From: Candidatus Rokubacteria bacterium RIFCSPLOWO2_02_FULL_73_56
GTDB lineage: Bacteria > Methylomirabilota > Methylomirabilia > Rokubacteriales > CSP1-6
Length of the DNA: 64,000 bases
Assembly (NCBI GenBank): GCA_001788495.1
Contig: MGCF01000006.1
Coordinates: 2,106-66,105, forward strand
Direction: 5' to 3'
Positions 1-54,293 of this stretch are shown piece after piece. The notes under the pieces were generated by a model. That model had not been told where the DNA came from. It ran no database searches and worked only from the letters and a program-made list of their open reading frames with translations. Numbering within the stretch: position 1 is the stretch's first letter; the number at the start of each line of letters is the position of its first letter. The position numbers were made by a program, and so were the translations under genes.

Positions 1-1514
1 CCCGCCGCGGCGAGGCGCGCGCTCAGATGCTCGGAGGCGGCGACCGAGCGGGTGCCGACGAGAATCGGTCGTCCCTGCCCGTGGAGCGCGGCGATGCGCT
101 CCACCACCGCCCCCCACCTCGCCTCCGCGTCCCGATACACTCGGTCGGCATGCCGCCGCCGGCGGAGAGGCCGGTTGGTCGGGATGGACACGACCGGCAG
201 CCGATAGACCGACCAGAGCTCGGCCGCGGTCTCACGCGCGGTCCCGGTCATGCCGCACAGCATGAGATAGCGCCGGAAGAAGCGCTGGTAGCTGATGCGC
301 GTGAGCGCGTCGTGGCGCGCGCTGAGGGGGCATTCCTCCTTGACCTCGATGAGCTGGTGCAGCCCATGCTCCCACGAGCGGTCCGACATGAGACGCCCGG
401 TGTACTCGTCGATGATCTGCACCTTCCGGTCGCGCACGATGTAGTGCAGATCGCGGTGGAACAGGTGCAGCGCCGTGAGGGCCTTGGTGACCAGCTCCTC
501 CCGCCGGCGGCGGCCGGTCCACACGCCGCCGAGCGGCGGCGCGTTCTCGTCGAGCCGAAGCATGCCCGACTCGGTCAGCCGTGCCGCACGATCCTGCTCG
601 TCGATCGCGAAGTCGAGGCCGGGCGTCAGTCGTGACGCCAGGGCGAGTGCCGTCGAATAGAGGCGGCGCTCGCTCGCGGCGCCGGCGGCGCCGCCGCCGG
701 AAATGATCAACGGCGTGCGCGCCTCGTCGATCAGCACGCTGTCGGCCTCGTCGACGATCGCGTAGCTGAGCCCGCGCAGCACCAGCCGGCCGGCGCGGGC
801 GTCGTCGCCCGCGAGGCGCTCGAGCTGGAGCAGGGTGCGGCTGGCACGCGGTCCCAGAGCCAGCCGGTCTCGCAGGTAGTCGAACGCCACTTCCTTGTTC
901 GTGACGTAGGTGACGTCGGACGCGTAGGCGGCGCGCCGGTCCGCATGCTCCATCCCGTGGACCACGACACCGACCGTGAGCCCGAGCCCCCGATAGACCG
1001 GGCCCATCCACTCGGCGTCCCGGCGCGCCAGGTAGTCGTTGACCGTGATGACGTGGACCGGAATGCCGGCGAGCGCCGCCGTGCACGCGGCGAGCGTCGC
1101 GGTCAGCGTCTTGCCCTCGCCGGTTTCCATCTCCGCGACCATGCCGCCGAGCAGCACGCGTCCACCGACCAGCTGGACGTCGAAGTGACGCTCTCCCAGG
1201 GTCCGTTCGGCGACCTCCCGCACGAGGGCGAAGGCGCGGGCGACGAGATCGTCGACGAACCGGCGCGCGCGGAGCTCTCGACCGAGCCGCTGGGCCGCCG
1301 CGAGGATCGCGTCCTCGCCGAGCGTCGCGATCCCGCCGCCGTGCCGGTCGACGAGCGCGGAGAACCGCATCCAGCGTGCCCTGCGCACCGCTCGGTGACG
1401 CAGCAGGGGCGCCACGGCCCGAGCGGCAAGACGATCGAGGGCCCCAGGCGGACGCTCGCTACGCTCCGGATAGGCGCCGAGCGGGACCTCGGGGTGGACC
1501 GCGAGCCTAGACAT
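1..1514 (-). CDS. SecA-family translocase ATPase paralog, N-terminal ~504 codons. The C-terminus lies beyond the left edge, so there is no in-window stop and the gene is absent from the ORF track.
   Basis: My own translation of the minus frame gives MSRLAVHPEV...LGERHFDVQLVGGRVLLGGMVAEMETGEGKTLTATLAACTAALAGIPVHVITVNDYLARRDAEWMGPVYRGLGLTVG...YAIVDEADSVLIDEARTPLIISG...LHGQGRPILVGTRSVAASEHLS. Walker A GEGKT lies at ~1107-1121. ATG 1514 overlaps the TAG (1507-1509) of the upstream gene (ATGTCTAG). Confidence 0.85.
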   Translation of the reverse strand, partial: MSRLAVHPEVPLGAYPERSERPPGALDRLAARAVAPLLRHRAVRRARWMRFSALVDRHGGGIATLGEDAILAAAQRLGRELRARRFVDDLVARAFALVREVAERTLGERHFDVQLVGGRVLLGGMVAEMETGEGKTLTATLAACTAALAGIPVHVITVNDYLARRDAEWMGPVYRGLGLTVGVVVHGMEHADRRAAYASDVTYVTNKEVAFDYLRDRLALGPRASRTLLQLERLAGDDARAGRLVLRGLSYAIVDEADSVLIDEARTPLIISGGGAAGAASERRLYSTALALASRLTPGLDFAIDEQDRAARLTESGMLRLDENAPPLGGVWTGRRRREELVTKALTALHLFHRDLHYIVRDRKVQIIDEYTGRLMSDRSWEHGLHQLIEVKEECPLSARHDALTRISYQRFFRRYLMLCGMTGTARETAAELWSVYRLPVVSIPTNRPLRRRRHADRVYRDAEARWGAVVERIAALHGQGRPILVGTRSVAASEHLSARLAAA

Positions 1515-3654
1515 TGAAGCGCGAGAGGAAGAGCTGCCGGACCGTCCGGTACCACTGCAGGGCGAGCGGTCTCGAGCCGTGGTCGAAGCGCACGTACGCG
1601 CGGCCGCCGACGTTGAGCCGGAGGGACCGAGCCGCAAGCTCGACGTCCACCTGAAAGACCTTCTGGGTCGCCGTGACCCCCTTCGGGTCCCGCGGATCGA
1701 CGACGATCTGTCCTCCGCCAGCGCTGCCGAGCGCCGTCGTCGGCAGCCGCTCGCTCGCGGCCGGCACGATCCGGCGGAGCGTGGCGGGAACCGTGTCGGC
1801 GAGGCTCTCGGCGAGGCGCACCTCCAGCCCCACGGTATGGAAGCGGACCAGATCGATCGCGCCCTGGGGCACGGCGGCCCGGATCGTGACCGTGGCGAGC
1901 TCGACCACGTAGGCCAGCTGCTCGCCCTTCTTGACGAAGCGACCCGGCAGGTCCTCCGGCGTCGGCACGATGAACGCGCCCGCCGTGCCGCTGCGAACCG
2001 TCAGGGCCTCGACGCGCTCCAGCGCCTGGCCCAGATCTTGCCGCGCGTACCGCAGATCCTTCTCGATGATCTCGGCCTTCACCCGATCCACCGGGCGCTG
2101 CTCGTCGTAGCGCGCCTGGAGCTCGCGGACGCGCGCCCTGAGCATCGCCACACGGACGCCCAGATCGGAATCCCTGAGCACGATCAGCGCGTCGCCTTGC
2201 CGCACCCGGGAGCCCGACGACGCGACGAACCGCTCGACGAACCCGTCGGTGCCGGCCCGGACGAGCGACTCCTCCGGAATCCAGACCACACCCTCGACGA
2301 CGCTGCGATACGGGACCGGCGCCAGCGTCACCACGCCGACGGCGGCCGCGACGGCCGCGCCCGCGACGGCGAGCGCCCGCGCGCGGTGCTTGCGGAGGCG
2401 CGGACTCGCGAAGAGAAACCGCGCCCCCTTGCCGATCGGAACGCCGATCCAGCCGACGGCCGTCAGGCCCGCGAAGAACATCGCCAGCCAGAAGTACCGG
2501 TCGGCGATGAAGGCGATGATGGCGATCACCACGAGCACCCGGTAGGCGAAGGAGGCCGCCGCGTAGGCCACGAACCACGCACGCTCGCCGGCCGTGGCCA
2601 CGGCCAGCTCGGCCTCACGCTGCCCGAACAGGTAGCGTTCGCAGAGATACCCGAGGTACTTGTTGGACCGCTGCCGCAGGTTCGGAATCTCCAGGAGGTC
2701 GCCCAGGATGTAGTAGCCGTCGTACCGCAGCAACGGGTTTGCGTTGAAGAAGATCGTGGTGACCCCCGCGATCAGGATCACGTTGTAGGTGATCACGCGG
2801 AGCAGCCCGGCCTCGACGCTCAGCCAGACGTAGAGGGCCAGGGCCGCGAGGAACAACTCCACGGTCATCCCCGCGGCGCCGACGGCGATGCGCCGCCACT
2901 TGCTGCGGAACGCCGAGGCCGACGAGGCGTCCACGTACGGCACGGGCGTCATCACGAGGACCATGACGCCCATGTCGTGGACCTCACCACCGAATGCCTT
3001 CGTCGTGTAGGCGTGACCGAGCTCGTGCAGCGCCTTGATCAGGGGGAAGAGCAGCCAGATCGTGAACAGGGCCTGCATGGAGAACAGGCGATCGAGGGTG
3101 TCCCGGGTCAGGTCCGTCCAGTACACGCCGGCGAGGACGAGTGCCGGGAGGACGACCAGGACCCAGGCGACCGCCCCCGCCGGGCCGACGAGGGGTCTGA
3201 CGAGCGGGACCGTCGCTGCGAGGAACCGCTCGGGGTCGAGCAGCCGCATGCGCCACGAGAAGAAGCTGGAGACCCGGCCGAGCCACCTCCTCCGCTGCTG
3301 GCGTTCGTACCGCTCCAGCAGGTCCGCCGCGTCGGGCGGGACATCGGACTGGAGCACGTCGCTCGCGTGGAGCTGGCTCAGGAGCTGGATGACGTCCTCC
3401 TGGGTCGGGCCGTCGTCGCCCAGGCGCTCGCAGGCCGTTTCCCAGAGCTCCTGAACCGTGCGCCGGCCATCCATGAGCCCGATCACCAGATACGCCTGCG
3501 GGGTGAAGCGGTGAAAGCGCTGGCCGGCGCGGTCCTCCAGCACGTACCACGTCTTGCCGCGGTACCGGTGGCGGTGGATGTGCGCGTGACTCCTGAGCCG
3601 CGGCTGGAGCTCGGCGACCCGGTACCAGGAGCTGCTGAAGAGCGGTTGCGTCAC
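1507..3654 (-). CDS. Tri-domain membrane protein: PqqD/RRE-like N-terminus, M50 (site-2 protease type) zinc metalloprotease and a HlyD-type periplasmic adaptor
   Basis: This is the C-terminal 715 codons of track ORF 1507..4230. The start is taken as GTG 3654, 5 nt after the upstream stop. N-terminus: WYRVAELQPRL...GKTWYVLEDRAGQRFHRFTPQAYLVIGLMDGRRTVQELW (PqqD-like). HELGH lies at 3013-3027 followed by multiple TM segments. C-terminus: GDALIVLRD...coiled coil...GAFIVPTPEDLPGRFVKKGEQLAYVV (HlyD lipoyl/barrel-like). Confidence 0.8.
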   Translation of the reverse strand: MTQPLFSSSWYRVAELQPRLRSHAHIHRHRYRGKTWYVLEDRAGQRFHRFTPQAYLVIGLMDGRRTVQELWETACERLGDDGPTQEDVIQLLSQLHASDVLQSDVPPDAADLLERYERQQRRRWLGRVSSFFSWRMRLLDPERFLAATVPLVRPLVGPAGAVAWVLVVLPALVLAGVYWTDLTRDTLDRLFSMQALFTIWLLFPLIKALHELGHAYTTKAFGGEVHDMGVMVLVMTPVPYVDASSASAFRSKWRRIAVGAAGMTVELFLAALALYVWLSVEAGLLRVITYNVILIAGVTTIFFNANPLLRYDGYYILGDLLEIPNLRQRSNKYLGYLCERYLFGQREAELAVATAGERAWFVAYAAASFAYRVLVVIAIIAFIADRYFWLAMFFAGLTAVGWIGVPIGKGARFLFASPRLRKHRARALAVAGAAVAAAVGVVTLAPVPYRSVVEGVVWIPEESLVRAGTDGFVERFVASSGSRVRQGDALIVLRDSDLGVRVAMLRARVRELQARYDEQRPVDRVKAEIIEKDLRYARQDLGQALERVEALTVRSGTAGAFIVPTPEDLPGRFVKKGEQLAYVVELATVTIRAAVPQGAIDLVRFHTVGLEVRLAESLADTVPATLRRIVPAASERLPTTALGSAGGGQIVVDPRDPKGVTATQKVFQVDVELAARSLRLNVGGRAYVRFDHGSRPLALQWYRTVRQLFLSRFNV

Positions 3655-3659
3655 GGGCG

Positions 3660-5417
3660 CTACGGGAGCCAGGCCCAGAGCTTCAGCCGGAGCCAGTCGG
3701 CGGCCTGGCGTGTCCAGATCCAGACGAGCAGGTGCCGCCCGGACACGATCTTGCCGACCCCCTCCATGCCGGGCCGGAGACGCTGCGGCGCCCGATCGAG
3801 TCTCGCCTCCACGCGGAAAGAATTGCGCCCGTCGCGGGCCGTCGAGACGGGCGTGATCTTCGTCACCGTGAACGGCAGCGCGTCCGATGGCCAGGCAGTC
3901 AGGAGGAGCTGGCCTCGCTGGCCCACGGCGATGTCGGCGATGTCGCGCTCGTCGACCTCGAGCACCGTGCGGTAGCCGGCCAGCGGCGCGACCTCGAAGA
4001 GGGTCTGGCCCCGCTCGATCGGGGCGCCGAGCGACTGGCTCAGGTCTCCGGTCACGACGACGCCGTCGAACGGCGCCACGACGTGGGTGCGGGACAGATG
4101 ATCGTCGGTCAGGGCGAGCTGCGCCCGCGCCTGGTCGGCCTGGGCGCTCGCGATCTGGAGCGCGGCGGCGTCCCCCTTGGCACGGGCCTGGTCCCGCTGG
4201 CGGCTCAGCTGCTCGAGCTGGCCCTGCCACCTCGCCCGTTCGAGCCTGAGCTCGCGGTCGTCGAGCACCGCGAGCACCTGCCCCTCACGGACGGCGTCGC
4301 CGGCGCGGACCGGCGCGTCCTTCAGATAGCCGCTGAACGGGGCGACCGCGGCGATGCGCGTGCTCGGCTCCATCACGCTCCGGGCCGACACGCGGTAGTC
4401 CCCCTCGGCCAGCGCCAGGAACAGGCCCAGGGCCGTGAGCCCCGCCACGGTGAGCTTGAGTGCGGTATGCCGCGGACCGATGAGATGGCCGAGGTGGCGC
4501 AGTCCCACCTGGACCGCCTTCTCGATCAGCCAGCGATCGTCCCGGCGCTGCACCTCCAGCACGGGACCCGCGACGGCCGCGAGCGCCTCGCAGAACTCCA
4601 CCGTCGCCCGATCGAACGGCCGGTCGGCCCCCCGCTCCAGGGTCAGCGCGCCGACCACACGCGCCCCCTCCGCGAAGAGGACCGTGCAGATCGCCCCGGC
4701 GTTGGACTGCCGCGCCAGGTCGGCGTGGGCCCCGGTCACGCGCGCCTCGGCCCCCGGCGGTTCCGGGTAGACCACCGTCGCGCGCTGGTCCAGGGCCTCG
4801 TCCATCGCGGCGCCGATCGCGCGGATCAGATTCGTCTGCTTGGCGAAGTTCGCCGTGTGGGAGACGGCCCGCGGGTGCATCCGGCCGCGCTTGAGGAAGC
4901 CGACGCTCACCCGGTCGCAGCCCAGACGCGTGGCCAGAGTCGTGACGAAGGTCGTCGCCGCGCCGTAGAACCGCTCGTGGCCGAGGCTGCTCGTGACCAG
5001 CTCGAGGACCGTCTGCAGCCGCTGCTTCGACGCCTCGACGCTCCCCGGATCGAGCTGCGCGGCGCCGAGGCGGTGCACCAGCACCTCGAGCCAGCCGGCG
5101 CCCCACTGGAGCTGGCGCAGGACCCCTTCCAGCTCCGCCTGGGGCCGGGGTGCGATGTCGAGCGCGACGACGCCGTGCACCCGCCCGTTCGCCTGGATCG
5201 GATACGCGACGTCGTAGCGCTCACGGTCCCGCACCGACGCGTCCGTACCTGCCTCGCGCTTCAGGACGATACCGCGCCGCTCGGCGAGCGCACGCTCCGC
5301 GGCCTCGGCCAGATGCGCCGCGGCGCGAGAGCCTTCCGGCCAGAAGGCCGCCGGAGCGAACTTGCCCGTGGTCGGAGAGGCGGCGACGACGACGCCCCGG
5401 CCGACGCCCGGGATCAT
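3660..5417 (-). CDS. GAF-domain protein fused to a HlyD-family membrane-fusion/adaptor protein. The true N-terminus may lie further upstream (see findings).
   Basis: Track ORF of 585 aa. GAF-like segments: RFYGAATTFVTTLATRLGCDRVSVGF...ICTVLFAEGARVVGALTLER. One TM segment: LKLTVAGLTALGLFLALA. HlyD core: VRAGDAVREGQVLAVLDDRELRLERARWQGQLEQL...VVAPFDGVVV...GYRTVLEVDERDI. Confidence 0.8.
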   Translation of the reverse strand: MIPGVGRGVVVAASPTTGKFAPAAFWPEGSRAAAHLAEAAERALAERRGIVLKREAGTDASVRDRERYDVAYPIQANGRVHGVVALDIAPRPQAELEGVLRQLQWGAGWLEVLVHRLGAAQLDPGSVEASKQRLQTVLELVTSSLGHERFYGAATTFVTTLATRLGCDRVSVGFLKRGRMHPRAVSHTANFAKQTNLIRAIGAAMDEALDQRATVVYPEPPGAEARVTGAHADLARQSNAGAICTVLFAEGARVVGALTLERGADRPFDRATVEFCEALAAVAGPVLEVQRRDDRWLIEKAVQVGLRHLGHLIGPRHTALKLTVAGLTALGLFLALAEGDYRVSARSVMEPSTRIAAVAPFSGYLKDAPVRAGDAVREGQVLAVLDDRELRLERARWQGQLEQLSRQRDQARAKGDAAALQIASAQADQARAQLALTDDHLSRTHVVAPFDGVVVTGDLSQSLGAPIERGQTLFEVAPLAGYRTVLEVDERDIADIAVGQRGQLLLTAWPSDALPFTVTKITPVSTARDGRNSFRVEARLDRAPQRLRPGMEGVGKIVSGRHLLVWIWTRQAADWLRLKLWAWLP

Positions 5418-5576: not shown

Positions 5577-5915
5577 TTACGACGCCGCCGGCGCGTCGGC
5601 CTGCGCTCCCTCGACCTGGACGGCGCCAAACCGGGCTTCATGTTCCCGCAACACGTTGGCCAGGAGCGTCGACAGCCGCTTGGCGACGAACGGGTTGAGG
5701 ATGAGTCGGTCGGTGAGCTGCACCGTCACGTCCTTCTGCCCGGCGTGCCACGCCTGGTTGATGCCGAAGAGCAGGACGACCTCCTCGCGCGTGCTCGCGA
5801 CGTTGCAGACGTTCGAGTACGAGCTCTTCATCCGGGAATCGTCCCACTTGATGGTGAGCTGCTGGGCCGTGCGCTCGGGCCCGGCCACAGCTTCGCGTTC
5901 ACGCTCGTCCGCCAT
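5577..5915 (-). CDS. DUF3467-like small protein, copy A
   Basis: Internal ATG (codon 112) of track ORF 5577..6248, preceded by GGAGAGGAG. Sequence: MADEREREAVAGPERTAQQLTIKWDDSRMKSSYSNVCNVASTREEVVLLFGINQAWHAGQKDVTVQLTDRLILNPFVAKRLSTLLANVLREHEARFG. It matches my recollection of the DUF3467 pattern (YaN...s..Ef.l.FG......RiilsP..AKrL...L......YE..fG). Confidence 0.8.
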   Translation of the reverse strand: MADEREREAVAGPERTAQQLTIKWDDSRMKSSYSNVCNVASTREEVVLLFGINQAWHAGQKDVTVQLTDRLILNPFVAKRLSTLLANVLREHEARFGAVQVEGAQADAPAAS

Positions 5916-5944: not shown

Positions 5945-6892
5945 TCAGCTCGATGGGGTCCGGGTCAGTATGCCCGGCGGCCGCGGAGCCTCGGCCGCTC
6001 GAATGGGCACGAGCTCCGCGGCGTGCCACCCGTACCTCGCCGCGTAGGCCGCGTTGAGCCCCAGGCACCGCGTCGAGCTGCACGCCTCGCGATGCACGCA
6101 CTGGTAGAAGCCGTTGCGCCGGAACTCGGTCCAGAAGGCGGGGTCGATGAACAGCCGCGGCTGCGAGTTGTCGAGCGTGTCCCCGTCCTCGCCCAGCAGG
6201 CAGTGCGGAAAATTCTTGACCATGACGCCACGGTCGAGCGCGTGGCATCTGGCGATCGCCGTCCTCAGGAAGGGGAGCACCTCGAGGTGGGATGCGCCCA
6301 GCTCCTTGACGTCCTGCTCGTTCATGGCGAAGTAGACCCAGAACTCGTGCTGGACCATCCGCCGCAGGTGTCCGAGCCGGTCGACGAGCCGGGGCAGATG
6401 CCGGTAGCTCTTCACCGTGACGACGGTGTTCGTGAGGGTCGCGACGCCCGGCAGCGCGTCCAGGTTCTCCAGGCCCCGGAGGGTCTTGTCGAACGATCCC
6501 GGCACTGTCGTGATCGCGTCGTGCGTCTCGGCGTCCGCGGCGGTGACGCTCACGAAGAACTCGTCGACTCCCGCGTCGACCAGCTCTCGGCAGTAGGCCT
6601 CGCTCGCCAGGCGCATCCCGTGCGTCTGGATCCGCACGTGCTCGAAGCCCCTCCGCCGCGCCTGTCTGGCCAGCTCCGGCAGGTCACGCCGCAGCGTGAT
6701 CTCCGCCCCGGTGAGGATCAGACCCGTCCACCGTCGGTGCGTCGCGTTGTAGTCCAGGAGCTGCTCGAACCGGCTGAGCGACTCCGGCTCCAGCCGGTCC
6801 ATGGTGTCCTCGATCATGCAGTGGACGCAGGCCAGATTGCAGCGGAACTCCAGCGTCATCGACACGTAGCGATCGTCGTCAAACCGTCCCAC
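5945..6892 (-). CDS. Radical SAM enzyme with a Cys-rich C-terminal region that may hold an auxiliary cluster
   Basis: Track ORF of 315 aa. CNLACVHC (CxxxCxxC) at codons 18-25. GLILTGAEITLRRDLPELARQARRRGFEHVRIQTHG is TIM-barrel rSAM-like. C-terminal cysteines: HCLLGEDGD...FYQCVHREACSSTRCLGLN. Confidence 0.85.
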   Translation of the reverse strand: MGRFDDDRYVSMTLEFRCNLACVHCMIEDTMDRLEPESLSRFEQLLDYNATHRRWTGLILTGAEITLRRDLPELARQARRRGFEHVRIQTHGMRLASEAYCRELVDAGVDEFFVSVTAADAETHDAITTVPGSFDKTLRGLENLDALPGVATLTNTVVTVKSYRHLPRLVDRLGHLRRMVQHEFWVYFAMNEQDVKELGASHLEVLPFLRTAIARCHALDRGVMVKNFPHCLLGEDGDTLDNSQPRLFIDPAFWTEFRRNGFYQCVHREACSSTRCLGLNAAYAARYGWHAAELVPIRAAEAPRPPGILTRTPSS

Positions 6893-7187
6893 GGGGCTTC
6901 CCTTCCCTCTCGGCTCGAGTCGCCGGGGACCCTGCGCCCTCGAACCGCGCCTCGTACTCCGCGACCACCCGGCCGAGCAGCACGGCGAGCCGCTTCGCGA
7001 CCGGCGGACTCAGCACGATCCGCTGGCCGAGATCGACGACGAGCTCCTGGCGGTCGGTCCGCGAGGCGCGGCTCACGCCGAACGACAGGACGAACTCCGC
7101 GTCGCTGGTCGATACGTTGCACTGGTTCGCGTGCATCCGCCTGGCGCTCGCGTCGTCCCAGCGGACCCGGGCGGCGCCCGAGCTCAC
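6879..7187 (-). CDS. DUF3467-like small protein, copy B (divergent)
   Basis: In track ORF 6879..7235. The start is taken as GTG 7187, forming a GTGA overlap with the methyltransferase stop. Sequence: (V)SSGAARVRWDDASARRMHANQCNVSTSDAEFVLSFGVSRASRTDRQELVVDLGQRIVLSPPVAKRLAVLLGRVVAEYEARF. Confidence 0.7.
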   Translation of the reverse strand: MSSGAARVRWDDASARRMHANQCNVSTSDAEFVLSFGVSRASRTDRQELVVDLGQRIVLSPPVAKRLAVLLGRVVAEYEARFEGAGSPATRAEREGKPRGTV

Positions 7188-8275
7188 GGCTTCGTCCCCG
7201 TGACCAGGAAGAACGGCGTCTCGAGGTCGATCCACCGGACGTCGACGCCGCGGAACCCGAGTGCGCCGAGCTGATCAACGTACGCCGCCGGCGAGCGAAA
7301 CGAGCGGAAGAACAGCAGCAGCGGGATCATCGCGTATGACGGCGCGCCGGTCGCGACCGGTCCCCGCTCGAAGATGAGGAGCGTTCCCCCGGGCTTCAGC
7401 GCCTCGCTCGCCCGGACGAGCAGACGCCTCGCGTCCCGCTCCGGCCAGTCGTGCAGCATGGACTTGAACGATACCAGATCGCGCCCGCCGGGCAGCGGAT
7501 CGGTCAGCGCGTTCCCCCGGACGAAGTCGATCCGCGCGCCTTCGGGCTCGCGCTCCACGTGTGCGCGGCCGATGTCGCACACCACGGGCAGGTCGAACAC
7601 CGTCGCCGTGACCGCCGGGTACCTCCGACAGATCCGGAGCGCGAATTCCCCGCTGTTGCCGCCGACGTCCAGGACCCGCTCGTGGCCCCCGAAGTCGTGA
7701 TGCTGCAGGCACACCCCGGCCTCGTACTTCGTGAGACACGTGGTGATGCGCATCCACCGTCGGGTCGCCTCGTAGTCCTCGGCGCTCGCCCCGAGCGCCC
7801 GGTCGTAGGAGAACAAGCGAAAGGTGCGGGCCTGACGCCGGAACGTCTCGGGGTCCCGGATCGCCGCCGTGAACAGGTCCGTGAAGTCCGGCAGCACCAG
7901 CGCGGCGTACTCGAGCTTCGTCTCGAGCAGGTCACGGAAGCGGAGGGCCCTCCGGAAGTCCTCGCTCAGCGCGACGCCTCGCGGCCGTTCCTCGACGACG
8001 CGGTTCGTCCGGAGCAGGTCCAGCAGCAGCCGCAGGCCGCGGCCGTCGCCCGGGAACCCCGTCGCGAGATCCGCGACGGCCATGGCCTCGTGGGCAGCCA
8101 GCCGGTCGATCACCCGGAGCTCGAACGCCGTCTTCAACGCCCGTGCGTCGATCAGGGTCGTGAGAAAGCCGTCGACACAGAGGTACTCCCGCTCGTCTGT
8201 GGGCTCCATGGACGCCGCCGGCGGCGGGCCCACCGCGAGGCCCCGAGCGCGGTCGGTCACGTCAAAAGACTCCAT
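7184..8275 (-). CDS. Class I SAM-dependent O-methyltransferase (family-2 type with N-terminal dimerisation/wHTH domain)
   Basis: In track ORF 7184..8335. Start choice is ATG 8275 (MESFDV). SAM motif: VLDVGGNSGEFALRICRRYP. DFVRGNALTDPLPGGRDLVSFKSMLHDWPERDARRLLVRASEALKPGGTLLIFE is typical of Methyltransf_2 enzymes. Confidence 0.8.
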   Translation of the reverse strand: MESFDVTDRARGLAVGPPPAASMEPTDEREYLCVDGFLTTLIDARALKTAFELRVIDRLAAHEAMAVADLATGFPGDGRGLRLLLDLLRTNRVVEERPRGVALSEDFRRALRFRDLLETKLEYAALVLPDFTDLFTAAIRDPETFRRQARTFRLFSYDRALGASAEDYEATRRWMRITTCLTKYEAGVCLQHHDFGGHERVLDVGGNSGEFALRICRRYPAVTATVFDLPVVCDIGRAHVEREPEGARIDFVRGNALTDPLPGGRDLVSFKSMLHDWPERDARRLLVRASEALKPGGTLLIFERGPVATGAPSYAMIPLLLFFRSFRSPAAYVDQLGALGFRGVDVRWIDLETPFFLVTGTKP

Positions 8276-9134
8276 AATAGGCGCTCTTGAGGAACACCAG
8301 CCTGCCACCCTCCATACGGTAGTCGATCCCGACATCGTACAGCATGTGGCTCAGACTCGGCCGGTTCCTTTCGACGAACGACACGATCGCTTCCGGATAC
8401 GCCAGCCGCCGCAGGAAGAAGAGGAACTGATCCACGTCAATCCCGACGAAGTAGACGGCATCGTTCCGCTTCTTGTTCGCCACCACGATCACCCGGCACT
8501 TCTGCAGCTCCGGCCACAGGATCTCCTCGATCGGCACCCGCGTGGCGTCCATGTACGCGGAACACCCGGCCTTGTCCTTGATCTCCGCGAGCTGCGAGCG
8601 CGCGTCGAAGAAGAAGTAGAAGTTCTCGAGGGCGGTCCCGCGCTTCGTCAGCGAGTAGCAGATGCCCCCGGAGACCGTGCTCCCGGGCGTCCCGACATAC
8701 ATGTGGATCTCGTCCAGGGAGGCCGTCCCCGTCAGCAGCGACGGGCCCACGTCGAGCGAGAACATGAAGTACGGCAGGCGCTCGTTGACCGGGACGTCGC
8801 AGCGCACCCGAGGCCGGAGCGCCTCGGCGACTCGCGTGATGGAGCGCGTGCGCTCTCGGCGCCGATAGTCGTAGAAGTAGAGCTCCCAGCGCAGCTCGCC
8901 CCCGATCCACTTGACTCCGAAGACCGTCTTCGACACGCCGATCGCCTGCCGGAGGAGCGGCACCAGGTCGAAGCATTCCTCTCCCACCCCCGCGACCTCG
9001 AACGACCGGAACAGCAGGTTCACCGATCGAAACTTGCCGCCCGGGGGCGCGACCGGCTCGTACTCCCACAGGCAGAAGTCCTGCAGCGTCTCCCCCTCCG
9101 CCGCGTACTCGAGGCGCTCGTCGAGCGTCTTCAT
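8262..9134 (-). CDS. Unknown 290-aa protein (X2), paralogous to the C-terminal domain of the next gene. Its strand/helix pattern is reminiscent of ABBA (PT-barrel) prenyltransferases.
   Basis: Codon 295 onward of track ORF 8262..10016, with an ATGA overlap with the upstream stop at 9131. Sequence: MKTLDERLEY...VFGVKWIGGELRWELYFYDY...YFMFSLDVG...IHMYVG...ICYSLTKRGTALENFYFFF...AVYFVGIDV...LYDVGIDYRMEGGRLVFLKSAYYGVF. Confidence 0.6.
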   Translation of the reverse strand: MKTLDERLEYAAEGETLQDFCLWEYEPVAPPGGKFRSVNLLFRSFEVAGVGEECFDLVPLLRQAIGVSKTVFGVKWIGGELRWELYFYDYRRRERTRSITRVAEALRPRVRCDVPVNERLPYFMFSLDVGPSLLTGTASLDEIHMYVGTPGSTVSGGICYSLTKRGTALENFYFFFDARSQLAEIKDKAGCSAYMDATRVPIEEILWPELQKCRVIVVANKKRNDAVYFVGIDVDQFLFFLRRLAYPEAIVSFVERNRPSLSHMLYDVGIDYRMEGGRLVFLKSAYYGVF

Positions 9135-10252
9135 TGCGCGCCGAAGTAGATGGAGAGGAAGTCCTTGCCTTCCCGGTCGAAACCGCCCGTCACGTGCCCG
9201 AAGGGCGCCGCGCTCACCTGCGCGTACGCCGCCTCGAACCGGTCCGCGGAGATCGCGTAGTGCTCGCAGATCCTGAGGAACAGGGCGTGGAGATCGCGCA
9301 GCCGCAGTCGCGCGTTGTAGAGGTTGATGTCGAACGAGTTCCGCGGGTTCCCCTCCTCGGTGGTCTCCAGGTACAGGAATCGATCGGCGGCCACCCGGCC
9401 CGCGGCCTGCAGGACGATCTCGCGCGCGAGCGCGAGCGGGGTACCGGAGGGGCCGCCCGCGAAGGCGCGGGCCATCCGCTCCAGCATGTCGTCGGTGGAG
9501 AGCCCGGGATGGCACGTGTACCGCGCGACGGAGCACCGCCGGCTGTCGTCGGCATCCCACTTGAATCCCAGGTACATGAGGAGGGGATCCCGCCGGTTCT
9601 CCGCCTTGGCCCTGACCAGTCTCCCCCCGAATTCCAGATAGGCCTTGTAGCGCTGCGTCCGCTCGCTCTCCTCGAAGCCGAAGAAGACGATGTTGGCCTG
9701 GAAGATGTTCTCGCGGAACGCCGCCACGAAGCGCTCCGGCATCCGGAGGCGCTCGCAGATCGCCAGGAGGCGCCCGCCGGCGTCCTCGCTGAGCGAATCC
9801 CGCTTGAAGCCCCACAGGAACCGGTTCGCGAGCAGGGTCCGCTCGAACATCTTGAAGGAGCGCTCGAGCACCGGCTGGACTCCGAGGTCCTCGACGAGGC
9901 GAAGCAGCTCGGCGGCCTGCTCGGGGATGCCTTCGGTGAGCGACACGGGCGACTTCCGGCTGGAGAGCGGCGCCGCCGGCGGCAGCGGCTCGCCCCCGAG
10001 CGAGCCGTGCTCCCACTCGTAGTCCCGGACGGCGTGCGCCAGCATGGCCGCGAGCCGCTTCGCGGTGGAAGGGCTCAGGACGATCCGGTCGGACACCTCG
10101 AGCACGAGCTCGTCGGTGCCGGGCACCCGGCGCCCCTTGCTCCCGAAGGACAGGGTGACCTCCGAGCGATCGGCGGACAGCTCGAACACGTTCGCGTAGC
10201 TCGTGCTCGCATTCGAGCCTTCCCAGCGCACCGGGACCCGAGCCTCAGACAT
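9131..10252 (-). CDS. Fusion protein (X1): N-terminal DUF3467-like domain (copy C) plus a ~270-aa unknown domain paralogous to X2
   Basis: Track ORF of 373 aa with GGAGGG 6 nt upstream. N-terminus: VRWEGSNASTSYANVFELSADRSEVTLSFG...LEVSDRIVLSPSTAKRLAAMLAHAVRDYEWEHG. C-terminus: IVFFGFEESERTQRYKAYLEF...LLMYLGFKWD...NSFDINLY...FGHVTGGFDREGKDFLSIYFGAQ. Confidence 0.75.
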   Translation of the reverse strand: MSEARVPVRWEGSNASTSYANVFELSADRSEVTLSFGSKGRRVPGTDELVLEVSDRIVLSPSTAKRLAAMLAHAVRDYEWEHGSLGGEPLPPAAPLSSRKSPVSLTEGIPEQAAELLRLVEDLGVQPVLERSFKMFERTLLANRFLWGFKRDSLSEDAGGRLLAICERLRMPERFVAAFRENIFQANIVFFGFEESERTQRYKAYLEFGGRLVRAKAENRRDPLLMYLGFKWDADDSRRCSVARYTCHPGLSTDDMLERMARAFAGGPSGTPLALAREIVLQAAGRVAADRFLYLETTEEGNPRNSFDINLYNARLRLRDLHALFLRICEHYAISADRFEAAYAQVSAAPFGHVTGGFDREGKDFLSIYFGAQ

Positions 10253-10345: not shown

Positions 10346-13300
10346 TCACGCTCCGCTGATCGCGGTCGCGGGGCTCGCCTCGACCAGCTCGATGTCCGGG
10401 GCCACGTCGATGCTCCAGTCCAGGAGGTGCGACTCCGCCGACTCCGGCCGACTCAGCTCACCGCGCCGCGCGGCCGTCGTCAGGCTGCTCCAGAGATCCC
10501 CCGCCGCGTCGCCGTCGAAGATCCGGAAGTCGCGCAGGGCCGCCAGGACCCCGCCGCCGCGCTGCTCGTCGCGCGTGCTCAGGCCCGCGAACGCCCCCGC
10601 CGACCAGTCGATCCCCGGCGCGGCCGGTGCGAGGCGCACCGGCCCACCGAGCGCGACCTCGACAGGCTGCGCGGAACCCGTGTCGTGCGCGACGAGCCGC
10701 TCGCCCTGCGTCAGCGTCGGCGACATCACGTCGGCCACGCCCTCGTGCGCGAATCCCATCACGTGTCCGAGCTCGTGCATGGCCACCGTCAGCAGGTCCA
10801 CGCCGCCACTGCCGCCGCCGACGATCCAGCCGTACCCTGCAGCGTCGGCGTCGAAGACGATCGAGCGGCCCACGGTGGTGGCGAGCACCGGCCCGTCGAG
10901 CTCCGCGACCGCGAACCGGAAGTCCGCCAGCGCCCCCAGCCGCGAATCCCCGTTGCCCAGCGTGTCGGTCCACTGGCGGATCGCCGTGTCGACCGCGCCG
11001 TCCAGCGTGCGGACGTCGAGCGTGCCGGTCGCCGCCGGTGCGGACGCGATGGCCGCCGCTTCCATGTTCTGGCCGCCCGACTGCGCGAAGGCGGGATCCG
11101 TCGTCTTGATCGTGACGTTGTCGAAGCTCGCCGCTCCGCCGGTCGCGAACACGCCGAATCCGCCGTCCACGACGACCGCGTTGAACGCGAAGCCGACGAC
11201 CGCCTGACCGTTCAGCGTCACGCTGACCGTCGACCCCTTCAGCGAGATGCCCAGCGTGTAGTCGGTGCCCGCGTTGATCGTCCGGGCCACCGACGCGTCG
11301 ATGACCCAGCCGTTCTTCGCCGTGTAGTGCCCGATCACGACCTTGTCCGCGGGCGCGTCGATCGCGACGAACTTGAAGTCGTCCCCCTCGTACCGGTCGA
11401 AGACGAAGCCCGCGCGGCCCTGCGTGTTGACGATCGAGGACAGCTCGAGCACCGACGATACCTGGAACCCGCCGACGCCGAGGTCGATCAGCTTCGCCGC
11501 GGTCCCGCCCGAGGGCGGCACGGCCACGTAACGGCCGCCGCTCACGGCCCACGTTCCGCTCGTCGCGCCCGTGAACAGGTCGGCGACGCCGTCGCCGAAG
11601 TCCTCGGTCGACTGGAACGTCGCGGCCGCCTGCACCACCTGCACCTGGACGTTGTCGAACGAGCCGCGCGAGTTGTCCGAGCCCACCCCGACGAGGCCCC
11701 AGTTCAGGCCGTACGACCAGCCGTCGATCACCCGCGGCGCGAACGTGTAGGTCAGCGAGTCCTTGTTGTTGACGATGATCGTGGCGTTGAGGCCGTTGAT
11801 CGACAGCATCATGTTGTAGTACGTGTCGGCCTTCGCCAGGAACGGCGTCTGCTTGTCCACGTGCCAGCCCGAGGCGTCCCGGTGGCCGGCCACCAGCTTG
11901 TTCGTGGAGATGTCGATGCCGGTGAACTTGAAGTCGGTCTTCGTGTTGTAGTCGAAGATCAGGTAGGCGTTCCCCTTCCAGCCTGCCGTCGGCTTCACCA
12001 CGTCGACCGACGCGAGCATCTCGAAGTAGGCGGGCAGCGCGTCGCCGACCTGGTACACGGCGACCGCGTCGCCGCCCAGCGACTGCGCCGACACCTGGAG
12101 CGCGCCGCCCGAGACCGTCCACGCCCCGGAGTCGGCGAAGAACGCCTGGGCCGTACCGTCGTTGAAGTTCGCCGACCGCAGCACGTCGCGCTTGCCGCCG
12201 GGAACGTTCCCCGGCTGCGGGTCCGTGGGCGCGCCGGTCTGGTCGTGCCACGCGAAGTCCTGCTGCCTGATGACGGCGAGCTCGCCCTCCGGCTCGCCGT
12301 TCCGCGTCGGGTCCGCGCCCGTGTCGGCGGCGCGCGTCGGGTCGGCGCCGTCGTTGGCCGACAGCTGGTAGAGGAATTCCGCGAGCTGCGGCTGCAGCGT
12401 GCGGCTCACCGTCGCCATGCCGAACGGCGCAAACGGCACGAGGTAGCTGTTGAACTCGCCGGCCCAGTCGATGAGCCGGTCGCCGCCCGTGTTGCCGATC
12501 AGGACGTCGCGGCCGGCTCCGCCGAAGGCGCGGTCCTCGTAGCTGGCGGCCGTGTCGGGCGCGTTGTTGAGCCCGCCCGCCGTGGTCAGCACGTCGTCGG
12601 CGTTGAGCAGGTCGTTGCCCCAGCCGCCGTAGAGGTCGTCGCGACCCGTGCCGCCGACGAGCCAGTCGTTGCCCGTGTCGCCGAAGAGCGCGTCGTTGCC
12701 GTCGGAGAAGATCCCCGTCGCGACCTCCGCGCCCTCGGTGCTCACGAAGTTGAGGAAGAACTCCTTGCCCGCGCCCGTCTTCGACAGCTCGCCCACGTCC
12801 GTCAGCAGGATCTTCCGCAGCGGATCGTACTCGTCGTACAGCGCGAACTCGCCCGCGCGCCGCGTCCGGTCGACGTGCCAGCCGTCCGGGTCGTCCGGGT
12901 TGAAGCGGAGGATGTCGCCGTCCGCGAGGTTGAGCGGATGCCCGTAGTCGGTGCGGATGACGCCGATGAGCAGGTCGGTGGCGTCGTACAGCTGCGCGTA
13001 GGACTCGACCGGTGCCTCGGCGCCGGAGATCGCGTCGTCCCCCGAGCCGCCGTGGAGCGTGTCGTTGCCGACACCGCCGTAGATGATGTCGTCCGACTTG
13101 TGCGCGACCGTCGCGGAGCCGCCGAACTCGTCCTGGGTGCCGTTGAAGGTCACGTCCACGCTGAACGGCGTGAGGTCGGCCGTCTTCTTCAGCTGGCCGC
13201 TCACGTTGATGGTCGCCGACTGCACGTTGCCCGGCGTCGTGATGAGCAGGTCGAGCTGGCCGGCGAGGCTGCCGATCCCGTACAGCGGCTCCGCCGTGCC

Positions 13301-34285: not shown

Positions 34286-34628
34286 TTGAGGCTCCCTTGG
34301 AGAGCGAGCAGAGGCAGGGCGATGAGACGAGAAACCCGCGGATGCGAGTGCCAGCGCCTCCCGGAAATCACCTGGGCGGTTCTCCTACGGGCTAGCGAGC
34401 GACGCCACGGGTTGTGGCGGCGCCACTCTCGGACCAAACCTGTGCGTTGTCAAGGGCCGTTCTGCTGGCACCCGGGGCATTTCCGGAAGGCCCGCCGGCC
34501 CAGGTCAGGAGGCGTGCCTCCGGGTCACCGCCACGCCCCTCCCCCGATGACGCGAATTCCGGGCGGTGCGATCATGGCCCTGGCTCCCCGGTCATGGCAA
34601 GACGACAGGCCGTCCAGGCGCCGGCCCG

Positions 34629-35645
34629 ATGACGGCGGCAGACGCGCGGCGGGTGGTGCTCGTCGCTCCACCGTACGGCTGGCTGCGCGGCGAAGTGCCG
34701 AGACGCTGGCTCTCGGGACGCGGCGTCGACGCCGTGCTGCTCGCCCATGCCTCGCCGCAGTTCGGGGTCCCCGGCGCGATGGACGCCATCGAAGCCCTGG
34801 CGCGGAGCGCCCCTGCGACGTGGCACTTCTACCCCTTCCCGCACGACGAGTATCTGATCGACACGCTCCAGGCGCGCGGCCACCGGGTGCTCGTCGGCCT
34901 CGACGACGACTACTGGCACCCGAGCCCCTGGCATCCCGTCGGACCCCGGCTGGACAGCCTCCCAGACCTCGAGGCGCTGCTCGCCGCCGCCGACGGCCTG
35001 GTCGTCACGACGGAGCCGCTCGCCGGGATCGTCGCGCGCTTCAACGCCAACGTCGCCGTCGTGCCGAACGCCCTCGACCTCGAGGCGATGCCGGCGGCCC
35101 GCCCGCCACGGGAGGGACGGGCCAGGCGGGTTGGATGGAGCGGCTGGCCGGGACACCGGGGCGACACGGCCCTCCTCGAGGCGCCGCTGCGCGCGCTGCT
35201 CGCGGAGGACCCGGAGCTCACCTTCGTCGTGGCCGGCGAGCTACCGGCCTGGGCGGTGGGCGAGGCCCGGGTGGAGCGCGATACGCGCCTGCTCCCTCCG
35301 CTGGCACACTACCGGCGGCTCGCGCGGCTGGAGATCGATCTGTTCGTCGCGCCGCTGGTCGAGCACCCGTGGAACGAGGCGCGGAGCCTGCTGAAGGCCC
35401 TCGAGGCGGCCGCGCTGGGACTCCCGATGATCGTGTCCGACGTGGGCCCGTATCGCGCCGTGCCCGCGGATGTCGCGCTGAAGGTTCCGAACACCGCGGC
35501 GGCCTGGCGCGCGGCCCTCGAGCGGCTGATCGCCGACGCCGCGCTGCGGAGGGCGCTCGCCGGGCGCGCGCTTGCATGGCTCCGAGAACACCACACGATC
35601 GACACCACCGGTCCGCTCTGGCGGGCGGCGCTCGCCGCCGTGTGA
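34629..35645 (+). CDS. GT-B fold glycosyltransferase (family 1/4-like)
   Basis: In track ORF 34566..35645. The start is taken at MTAADARRVVLVAPPYG. The C-terminal half reads RVGWSGWPGHRGD...FVAPLVEHPWNEARSLLKALEAAALGLPMIVSDVGPY, which looks like the nucleotide-sugar binding region. Confidence 0.65.
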   Translation: MTAADARRVVLVAPPYGWLRGEVPRRWLSGRGVDAVLLAHASPQFGVPGAMDAIEALARSAPATWHFYPFPHDEYLIDTLQARGHRVLVGLDDDYWHPSPWHPVGPRLDSLPDLEALLAAADGLVVTTEPLAGIVARFNANVAVVPNALDLEAMPAARPPREGRARRVGWSGWPGHRGDTALLEAPLRALLAEDPELTFVVAGELPAWAVGEARVERDTRLLPPLAHYRRLARLEIDLFVAPLVEHPWNEARSLLKALEAAALGLPMIVSDVGPYRAVPADVALKVPNTAAAWRAALERLIADAALRRALAGRALAWLREHHTIDTTGPLWRAALAAV

Positions 35646-54284: not shown

Positions 54285-54293
54285 GGCGCCCCG

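Follow-up and report, generated by a model that had tools for sequence, protein, structure and literature searches.

The DNA considered here is a 64,000-nucleotide stretch (the window; G+C ~70-77%) of Candidatus Rokubacteria bacterium RIFCSPLOWO2_02_FULL_73_56, corresponding to positions 2,106 to 66,105 of contig MGCF01000006.1. At its left edge lies a short SecA paralog, which is one gene of a conserved cassette with the order [DUF3467]-GAF-MFP-(RRE-M50-MFP)-short SecA-MFP, supplemented at some loci by SapC or TolC. Here MFP denotes a membrane-fusion (HlyD-type) protein, RRE a PqqD-like recognition element of the kind known from ribosomally synthesized and post-translationally modified peptides (RiPPs), and 'fusion gene' the gene coding for RRE-M50-MFP. 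The cassette recurs across many phyla, its SecA is truncated and starts within the end of the fusion gene, and it is linked to genes for giant proteins with an N-terminal LEPR-XLL signature. We propose, with a probability of roughly 0.6, that the cassette specifies a dedicated SecA-powered system for the export and processing of these giants, comparable to the type I secretion systems (T1SS). The principal features are:

Positions 1-1514, minus strand: short SecA paralog, of whose 664 aa the first 504 fall inside the window, comprising an N-terminal extension with a YPER motif, nucleotide-binding domain 1 (NBD1), the preprotein cross-linking domain (PPXD) and the start of NBD2, with the remainder beyond the edge
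Positions 1507-1514, minus strand: 8-nt start/stop overlap ATGTCTAG, with the SecA ATG within the final Asn-Val codons of the fusion gene
Positions 1507-3654, minus strand: fusion gene, 715 aa, from GTG at 3654 to TAG at 1509-1507; N-terminal cytoplasmic RRE (residues ~10-100), M50/site-2-protease (S2P) membrane domain, periplasmic MFP domain (~446-715)
Positions 3660-5417, minus strand: GAF-MFP, 585 aa; cytoplasmic GAF domain, one transmembrane helix (residues 319-337), periplasmic MFP domain
Positions 5577-5915, minus strand: DUF3467 protein (PF11950), 112 aa; ortholog of the copy that precedes GAF-MFP in other genomes
Positions 10346-34285, minus strand: giant protein, 7,979 aa, the proposed cargo, 9 kb upstream
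Positions 34040-34105, minus strand: LEPR-XLL signature of the giant (residues 61-82), ALETLEPRLLLSANL, including ...AFALETLEPRLLLSANL...

Composition and spread of the cassette

To gather loci, an alignment of the fusion protein was used as query against GTDB, each species being represented by a single genome, and the best 80 were analysed; their composition was established by tblastn and clustering, with some of the counts below taken over 84 loci. The fusion family is present in at least 549 GTDB species. The best 80 loci derive from Rokubacteria, Nitrospirota, Myxococcota, Desulfobacterota, Acidobacteriota, a Flavobacteriales metagenome-assembled genome (MAG) and alpha-, beta- and gammaproteobacteria, cultured isolates among them. 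When 1.84 billion representative proteins were searched exhaustively, the fusion protein gave 4,297 matches at E <=1e-30 and more than 150 clusters at 50% identity, nearly all of them 700-740 aa long.

Two neighbours of the fusion gene are almost invariable: GAF-MFP lies directly 5' of it in 77 of the 77 loci that reach that far, and a short SecA (open reading frames (ORFs) of ~655-700 aa) lies 3' of it in 77 of 78 informative loci, either directly or past a single SapC gene. A third MFP is present in 61/84 loci, DUF3467 occupies the position before GAF-MFP in 33/84, and a TolC/OEP gene is adjacent in 9/84 as well as on two plasmids, the Methylosinus copy scoring 290 bits against the TIGR01844 cut-off of 225. 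SapC-family genes (PF07277, Pfam E 3e-68) occur in 14 loci and on one plasmid: in five loci (L079:12185-12979, L035, L044, L073 and L082) and on the plasmid (L092:18965-19786), all alphaproteobacterial, the gene sits between the fusion gene and SecA, and in the remaining ones it sits elsewhere in the locus. Three loci of distant short-SecA homologs (L005-L007) likewise have GAF-MFP, the fusion gene (disrupted in L005), the short SecA and an MFP, with DUF3467 also at L006 and L007. The fullest set is that of the Methylosinus plasmid, which combines giant, DUF3467, GAF-MFP, RRE-M50-MFP, short SecA, MFP and TolC. Plasmid pDSM107133_a of Pseudosulfitobacter sp. DSM 107133 carries two complete cassettes (L092 and L101), each behind its own giant, one with SapC and the other with DUF3467.

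The SecA of the window is found in identical form on more than 20 metagenome contigs, and the whole locus on four (L001-L004). The gene calls of L001 map onto the minus strand of the window, and its genes overlap or nearly abut; beyond the window follows a 274-aa MFP whose start overlaps the SecA stop. Neither the cassette of the window nor the annotated plasmid cassettes contain an ABC exporter, the ABC genes of the window being ATPases of a Liv-type importer 30 kb away.

The fusion gene ends in TTC AAT GTC TAG, with the TAG at 1509-1507. As the SecA ATG lies inside the Asn-Val codons of this end, the overlap ATGTCTAG at 1514-1507 is real. It is kept in 56 of the 65 loci in which SecA directly follows the fusion gene, with an in-frame ATG (44) or GTG (12) at the identical position and the consensus RTGTNTRR, and the annotated plasmid loci have the identical 8-nt overlap. 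From this arrangement we infer that the SecA is translationally coupled to the fusion gene; the recurrence of gene order and overlap across phyla indicates that they are not due to chance.

The short SecA as an accessory paralog

The minus-strand ORF starts with ATG at 1514-1512 and runs without a stop for 504 codons to position 3. Pfam models recognize in it SecA_DEAD (E 2e-100, residues 46-434), SecA_PP_bind (E 7e-26, 283-390) and the start of P-loop_SecA (449-502). An earlier, sequence-only reading of this DNA had described a SecA-like ORF with no stop inside the window, a set of SecA motifs in it (RHFDVQL, AEMETGEGKTL, NDYLARRD, VDEADSVLIDEARTPLIISG and GRPILVGT), a start codon overlapping the stop of a protease-adaptor gene, and a PqqD-like/M50/HlyD fusion as the product of that gene. 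All of these are borne out: the motifs are present without exception, and the identity of the fusion protein is supported by PqqD and HlyD_3 matches above the Pfam cut-offs and by invariant M50 motifs.

The 160 residues outside the window were taken from 100%-identical contigs, giving a complete protein of 664 aa with the C-terminus ...RRAQRAAERLHSRIRRDLLDHDEQRETALAFAGRPE. It aligns to residues 19-647 of 871 in the solved SecA of T. maritima and 19-601 of 841 in that of B. subtilis, with ~12 further residues past the end of the alignment. By this comparison it keeps NBD1, PPXD and NBD2, ends within the first long scaffold helix, and has no helical wing domain, two-helix finger, rest of the scaffold or C-terminal zinc/SecB-binding tail, a tail which the sequence-only reading had named as something to look for. 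The same reading had called the N-terminus Arg/Ala-rich and unlike that of canonical SecA: the first ~46 residues are indeed unalignable to solved SecAs, but they are not random, as they contain a family-specific (G/x)xYPER...LDR motif.

Protein searches place it in a large family of ~660-aa SecA-like proteins with only the DEAD, PPXD and P-loop domains; none of the homologs found contains the SecA_SW Pfam domain. Every member of this family ends at the same point and has the N-terminal YPER...LDR extension, which is foreign to canonical SecA, and the ATPase motifs are present in 48-58 of the 58 near-full-length members. The family thereby retains the hallmark of canonical SecA in Pfam terms, a DEAD motor (NBD1 and NBD2) combined with the preprotein cross-linking domain, and misses the NCBIfam cut-offs both of canonical SecA (TIGR00963 and NF009538, with 618 and 631 bits against 800 and 814) and of the four SecA2 families (TIGR03714, 485 of 930 bits; TIGR04221, 492 of 725; TIGR04397, 560 of 1085; NF012136, 407 of 1100).

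We regard it as almost certain that the protein is a truncated accessory SecA belonging to a conserved cassette, in agreement with the sequence-only reading, which had favoured a dedicated accessory SecA over the housekeeping enzyme. This follows from its truncated 664-aa form, which fails every curated SecA cut-off, and from the presence of the same short SecA behind the same fusion gene in nearly all informative loci of many phyla. It also follows from plasmid carriage: in PLSDB, short SecAs with 46-56% identity are encoded on 12 plasmids of cultured alphaproteobacteria (Mesorhizobium ciceri, Methylosinus sp. C49, Pseudosulfitobacter, Rhizobium, Ensifer, Sinorhizobium and several roseobacters), and a full-length fusion gene adjoins them on all 12.

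A neighbour-joining tree points in the same direction. It was built from 23 cassette SecAs, five canonical ones (Shinella, Klebsiella, Neisseria, Priestia and Nonomuraea) and one plasmid-borne accessory SecA (Lactobacillus), and it groups the alpha-, beta- and gammaproteobacterial cassette SecAs apart from the canonical ones. This split was recovered in 175/200 bootstraps, and it is the only one quoted here, as very divergent or partial sequences gave undefined distances. Mean identity is 50% inside the cassette group and 40% to canonical SecAs. Within the cassette clade alpha- and betaproteobacterial sequences interleave, which suggests horizontal spread. The partners, too, differ from those of SecA2 systems, as had been anticipated: the window, L001 and the annotated plasmid loci are all without SecY2 or Asp genes.

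Downstream of the fusion gene, L028, L047, L074 and L081 encode SecA-like proteins that have diverged strongly (28-38% identity to that of the window), and shortened copies are found in L033 and L071; in the neighbour-joining analysis all six branch outside the main cluster of cassette SecAs, and they may be decaying or fast-evolving. The labels given to the short SecA by RefSeq/PGAP vary and are partly wrong, ranging over 'prepilin peptidase', 'DEAD/DEAH box helicase', 'translocase' and 'preprotein translocase subunit SecA' (PGAP-labelled examples are L089:19797-21713, L092:19779-21803, L088:19872-21833 and L101:22144-24126).

The RRE-M50-MFP fusion and its GAF-MFP partner

The fusion protein combines three modules. 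Its N-terminal region matches PqqD (PF05402; 24.7 bits, cut-off 23.4) and has the winged-helix fold of three strands and three helices that is characteristic of PqqD/RRE domains; this fold resembles the B1 proteins of lasso peptides. The central domain has ~7 hydrophobic segments by hydropathy and, although its Peptidase_M50 score (22.1 bits) lies under the Pfam cut-off of 27.2, it has the S2P fold, with both zinc-site motifs, HELGH (residues 210-214) and NANPLLRYDG (304-313), situated in membrane helices. These motifs, of the forms HExxH and NxxPxxxxDG, are invariant among the homologs. The C-terminal region matches HlyD_3 (31.5 bits, cut-off 22.2), so that the cassette has the HlyD-type MFP component of type I secretion systems. 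Among NCBIfam models the top match is NF041824, the intramembrane metalloprotease of daptide biosynthesis (E 5e-48, 164 bits against a cut-off of 300), followed by YydH/LiaK (NF058609; E 9e-9, under the cut-off). Public databases name the protein variously 'PqqD family protein', 'site-2 protease family protein', 'biotin/lipoyl-binding protein', 'peptidase M50' or 'hypothetical protein'.

In GAF-MFP, the Pfam GAF (E 4e-10) and HlyD_3 (E 1e-17) domains are accompanied by an NCBIfam RND_mfp match of 99.6 bits, over the cut-off of 94.9.

A stand-alone protein of ~744 aa that resembles RRE-M50-MFP is encoded on plasmid pAB510f of Azospirillum sp. B510 (L100, 146450-148684) and on ~15 other plasmids of Azospirillum and its relatives. 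It matches only residues 33-344 of the query, at ~33% identity, and there is no GAF-MFP, SecA or giant gene near it; it probably represents a different system on the same fusion principle.

Giant LEPR-XLL proteins beside the cassette

The 7,979-aa giant of the window has a third-codon-position G+C of 0.97 and is a single gene in other assemblies as well. It starts with a basic leader containing the LEPR-XLL signature (29.5 bits against the NF012209 cut-off of 17), followed by long β-rich repeats, RTX calcium-binding repeats (HemolysinCabind, E 1e-21) and a C-terminal matrixin-like HExxH region (Peptidase_M10, E 5e-6). The matrixin-like zinc-protease motif VAMHELGHVMGFAHE lies past the RTX region, at 10709-10864 on the minus strand (residues ~7808-7859); at L006 a separate M10 peptidase gene is found 3' of the cassette. 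The sequence-only reading, which was right about the accessory nature of the SecA, had not noticed that the cassette is tied to this protein.

Of the 38 loci flanked by 7 kb or more on each side, 31 possess an open frame of >=1,000 aa no further than 3.5 kb from the cassette; in 29 the frame reaches >=1,800 aa, and most of these frames run off the fetched flank. They lie upstream at 25 loci and downstream at 9, in overlapping counts, since some loci have both. Each of the six annotated plasmid loci has its giant (4,033-12,918 aa) directly upstream: Mesorhizobium ciceri (10,518 aa), Methylosinus sp. C49 (8,847 aa), Pseudosulfitobacter (12,918 aa at cassette 1 and 12,737 aa at cassette 2), Alisedimentitalea scapharcae (8,148 aa) and Thalassospira marina (4,033 aa).

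At the 10 loci where the N-terminus of the giant is within reach, a basic stretch is followed by the motif (F/L)ExLEPRxLLSAD, and a LEPR motif is present in all 13 giant N-termini inspected, that of the window included. The NF012209 cut-off is passed by 8 of 9 neighbouring giants scored and by the giant of the window (9/10). Two plasmid giants, of Pseudosulfitobacter and Thalassospira, carry the PGAP label 'LEPR-XLL domain-containing protein', and two further ones read ...LEPRVLLNAD and ...LEPRLLLSAD on translation. In most cases the 45 residues before the motif contain 8-12 Lys/Arg. None of the leaders has a hydrophobic core (the maximum 15-residue Kyte-Doolittle mean is <=1.75), and they are not Sec or Tat signal peptides. 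We propose that LEPR-XLL is a recognition or cleavage signal.

Beyond the leader, the C-terminal ~1,400 aa of the window giant share 35-52% identity with cassette-linked giants at 14 other loci; the remaining giants are unrelated to it except in the leader. The C-terminal tails of the giants are not conserved, and the signals of T1SS are poorly conserved in general. The giants contain domains of extracellular type, such as RTX, Ig-like and LamG.

A candidate export system for giant proteins

The binding of leader peptides is a property of RRE domains, S2P proteases cleave in or close to membranes, and MFPs together with TolC make tunnels that span the periplasm. A mechanism can be envisaged in which the cytoplasmic RRE of the fusion protein binds the basic LEPR-XLL leader in the manner of RRE domains on RiPP leaders. 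The short SecA, with its DEAD motor and PPXD clamp, would grip the unfolded chain and pass it, with the N-terminus leading and possibly while translation is still under way, into an assembly in the inner membrane formed by the membrane parts of M50-MFP and GAF-MFP. The intramembrane M50 site would cleave off the leader, the three MFP modules would provide a periplasmic tunnel to a TolC-type channel, and extracellular calcium would fold the RTX repeats of the released giant. The 8-nt overlap would couple the synthesis of SecA to that of its membrane partner; for DUF3467 and SapC we would guess at auxiliary roles as chaperones or adaptors. What the short SecA has kept are precisely the elements for gripping and moving a polypeptide, whereas those for docking on SecY are lost. 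With an N-terminal signal and a processive motor, export could start before a chain of 8,000 aa is complete, which a T1SS with a C-terminal signal cannot do.

We would go further only at even odds, namely to an unrecognised type of secretion system with an MFP/TolC conduit, a truncated SecA motor and an RRE-site-2-protease gate for giants that enter N-terminus first. In such a system SecA would replace the ABC, RND or MFS transporter, and cargo of 4,000 to more than 12,000 aa would be recognised by its LEPR-XLL leader.

Several observations weigh against a SecA-powered export system. The weakest step in the mechanism is the identity of the inner-membrane pore: the cassette contains no obvious protein-conducting inner-membrane channel, and we know of no M50 proteases that serve as protein conduits. 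There is no TolC gene in this window or at most loci, and 7 of the 38 well-flanked loci are without a nearby giant. SecA itself is absent from two loci. At the first, on plasmid pCSC3H3 of Thalassospira marina (L099, NZ_CP024200.1:193606-212571), the LEPR-XLL giant is accompanied by DUF3467, GAF-MFP, a divergent M50-MFP (35% identity), an MFP and TolC, with no SecA between fusion gene and MFP; the second is L067. SecA is thus dispensable in some variants. The RTX repeats are typical of T1SS cargo with C-terminal signals, so that an unlinked ABC exporter may be conceivable, and LEPR-XLL proteins in cassette-free genomes (e.g. Planctomycetes) may use another route. DUF3467, guessed above to be auxiliary, is highly conserved, at 60-80% identity along its whole length. 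It was tried as an analogue of SecB and rejected (hhalign probability 0.1 against E. coli SecB, an approximate query), and its AF2 model (pLDDT 55) is too poor for a fold search. Its profile has a single marginal match in the PDB, perhaps by chance (E 0.23, 9tu7_Y residues 1933-1989); these residues belong to the C-terminal region of a 'DEAD/DEAH box helicase' of 2,108 aa whose structure dates from 2025-26, and the match covers the conserved RIxLSPxxAKRL helix. The evidence as a whole is genomic, together with structural prediction.

The missing pore and the SecA-less variants, which could depend on housekeeping SecA, would be accommodated if the short SecA were a helper resembling SecA2. It would then deliver the giant to the housekeeping SecYEG, alone or together with canonical SecA, and the MFP, TolC and M50 components would act only later, in leader removal and the outer-membrane step. 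Mycobacterial SecA2 uses the housekeeping SecYEG, and the short SecA retains the motor and PPXD clamp, with 40% identity to canonical SecA. Yet it has lost the two-helix finger, most of the scaffold helix and the wing, which engage SecY in solved complexes, and its lipid-binding N-terminus is replaced by the YPER extension; the LEPR leaders have no hydrophobic h-region that could open SecY, and the tight coupling is with the M50-MFP gene rather than with sec genes. On balance this alternative is unlikely.

The daptide and YydH/LiaK matches of the fusion protein, its lasso-type RRE fold, and the three DUF3467 copies, radical SAM enzyme and methyltransferase of the window (described below) raise a second alternative: the RRE-M50 protease and MFPs would serve the maturation and export of a small modified peptide, derived from DUF3467 or from a precursor that has escaped annotation and tailored by the radical SAM enzyme and methyltransferase, and the giant would be a bystander. 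We consider this quite improbable. The best of these matches attains 164 of the 300 bits required, the tailoring enzymes are found in only ~3-4/84 loci and DUF3467 in 33/84, and the latter is conserved throughout, unlike RiPP precursors with their variable cores. Moreover, a giant is adjacent at 82% of the well-flanked loci, with one motif common to all N-termini inspected, and no RiPP system is known to require a SecA motor.

Slimmer still are the odds that the system serves regulated intramembrane proteolysis or quality control, with SecA as an unfoldase that feeds the N-terminus of the giant or another substrate to M50 for the purpose of signalling or anchoring instead of secretion. Such proteolysis is the classical role of S2P proteases, and a GAF sensor domain on the partner MFP and the apparent translational coupling of ATPase and protease genes would suit it; three MFP modules and recurrent TolC genes, however, point to a trans-envelope conduit, and the RTX, Ig-like and LamG domains of the cargo to the outside of the cell. 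Finally, that the short SecA is simply the housekeeping SecA of the organism, as its very low E-values to SecA models and the label 'preprotein translocase subunit SecA' in some databases might suggest, is rejected as virtually impossible in view of its truncation at the scaffold helix, its missed cut-offs (631 bits against 814 for the equivalog), its location on plasmids in 12 cultured strains, its separate clade and a synteny with the fusion gene that is fixed across phyla.

Relationship to known systems

Judged by family models and gene content, the cassette falls outside canonical SecA, SecA2, T1SS (as it has no ABC exporter) and the daptide protease, and appears to resemble a hybrid of them. 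Accessory SecA2 proteins (the Gram-positive SecA2/SecY2 aSec system and those of mycobacteria, Listeria, Bacillus and Clostridioides) are likewise second, non-essential paralogs for a few special substrates, and retain the DEAD motor and PPXD. They keep the scaffold and two-helix finger, whereas the short SecA ends in the first scaffold helix; its partners are MFPs and an S2P protease instead of SecY2/Asp or SecYEG, and it occurs in diderm phyla, unlike these SecA2 systems.

With T1SS of the HlyB-HlyD-TolC kind, including those for giant RTX adhesins, the cassette shares MFPs, sometimes a TolC gene in the locus, and a giant, often RTX-rich cargo without a Sec signal peptide. The ATPase is an ABC transporter in T1SS and SecA-like in the cassette, the signal is C-terminal in the former while the cargo signature of the latter (LEPR-XLL) is N-terminal, and the cassette, unlike T1SS, has one MFP joined to an RRE-S2P protease and one joined to GAF.

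SecA modules consisting of SecA_DEAD and PPXD without scaffold and wing have been described as fused parts of giant proteins of Omnitrophota and Actinobacteria, for which self-export was proposed (West-Roberts et al., 2023, 10.1101/2023.11.21.568195; Kaur et al., 2021, PMC8195603). The likeness is one of domain content: there the module lies inside the giant, in other phyla and with no fixed cassette of MFPs and S2P protease, whereas the cassette SecA is a stand-alone protein of 664 aa.

The M50 leader peptidases of RiPP systems (NF041824; YydH/LiaK, NF058609) also have an N-terminal RRE beside an intramembrane HExxH metalloprotease. The fusion protein differs from them in its periplasmic MFP domain and sub-cut-off scores, and their substrate is a peptide, while the candidate substrate here has 4,000-13,000 aa. 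A comparable logic is seen in the sorting-signal pairs PEP-CTERM/exosortase, GlyGly-CTERM/rhombosortase and LPXTG/sortase, in which a short terminal motif on otherwise unrelated proteins goes with a dedicated membrane protease encoded nearby; the cassette differs by its N-terminal signal, the S2P-RRE-MFP architecture of its protease and the presence of an ATPase motor, and cleavage at its motif is only proposed.

In the literature, giants with LEPRxLL N-termini have been reported from Chlorochromatium, where sapC and tolC genes flank the two giant genes of Chlorobium chlorochromatii (bioRxiv 10.64898/2026.03.19.712371); the supplement text of that preprint has nothing on a 'recently acquired' secA, Cag_1676. 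We found no paper combining SecA with DUF3467, the sole one mentioning DUF3467 being unrelated, and nothing on the cassette under SecA with HlyD, M50, PqqD, SapC, TolC or giant proteins. LEPR-XLL is mentioned only in passing, and a Chem Rev review of tripartite systems makes no mention of such a system. The cassette thus appears to be undescribed so far.

Its significance lies in making testable the question of how bacterial proteins of 5,000-36,000 residues are exported: it offers a candidate machine that is tied to the LEPR-XLL signal and present in at least 549 species, and its plasmid carriers (Mesorhizobium, Rhizobium, Ensifer, Methylosinus and roseobacters) are cultured and genetically tractable. 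To our knowledge, Cag_663 and Cag_665 of Chlorochromatium, which belong to the LEPR-XLL class, are the largest known bacterial proteins. If the proposed export function is correct, LEPR-XLL would be the first secretion signal assigned to its class of proteins, and tripartite envelope systems would gain a fourth class of energiser. It would mean that a SecA motor can function without SecY-docking elements and that RRE domains reach from peptide natural products into protein secretion, and it would explain why an N-terminal signal and processive motor fit giant cargo, which a T1SS with a C-terminal signal engages only after synthesis. The inconsistent annotation of the short SecA in databases would be corrected as well.

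Add-on and neighbouring genes

Between the giant gene and the core cassette lies an add-on module (5945-10252, minus strand):

Positions 5945-6892, minus strand: radical SAM enzyme, 315 aa (Pfam Radical_SAM, E 4e-19), outside the conserved core
Positions 6879-7187, minus strand: second DUF3467 paralog, 102 aa (PF11950; profile match E 8.5e-39)
Positions 7184-8275, minus strand: accessory O-methyltransferase, 363 aa (Pfam Methyltransf_2, E 1e-25)
Positions 8262-9134, minus strand: accessory protein of no known family, 290 aa
Positions 9131-10252, minus strand: DUF3467 fusion, 373 aa, with an N-terminal DUF3467 domain (Pfam E 1e-12) and a C-terminal domain of ~290 aa

Parts of this module recur beside the cassette at L061:15154-17739, L064:2147-7395 and L026:15083-15832, in Labrenzia alba, Methylobacterium aquaticum and a Burkholderiales MAG, and across these phyla the radical SAM enzyme shows 60-65% identity. 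The radical SAM enzyme has HxsC4 as its top NCBIfam match (E 1e-27, far under the cut-off), and homologs with 60-73% identity adjoin the cassette in L008, L061 and L064. A homolog of the O-methyltransferase is found in L064. L061 and L064 have homologs of the 290-aa protein (41-45% identity) beside their cassettes, and they share with L026 the C-terminal domain of the 373-aa protein; the 290-aa protein has no match in Pfam, NCBIfam or the PDB, and the C-terminal domain none in the PDB or NCBIfam. Paralogy between the two was considered and rejected, as they have no similarity. The module may serve to modify the cargo or the DUF3467 proteins.

The rest of the window, from 34566 to 64000, is apparently unrelated to the cassette:

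Positions 34566-35645: GT1 glycosyltransferase, divergent from the giant gene
Positions ~38.3-45 kb: Liv-type branched-chain amino-acid ABC importer
Positions 48845-49996: GGDEF protein
Positions 52956-55232: MoxR AAA_3 ATPase and its DUF58 partner
Within 34566-64000: zinc alcohol dehydrogenase
Within 34566-64000: FecR-like protein and aminotransferase

Past the left edge of the window, a 265-aa LAGLIDADG_3-like protein is encoded on the opposite strand right after the last cassette MFP gene (L001:13271-14068), followed on L001 by genes for a 2-oxoacid:ferredoxin oxidoreductase and NADH dehydrogenase.

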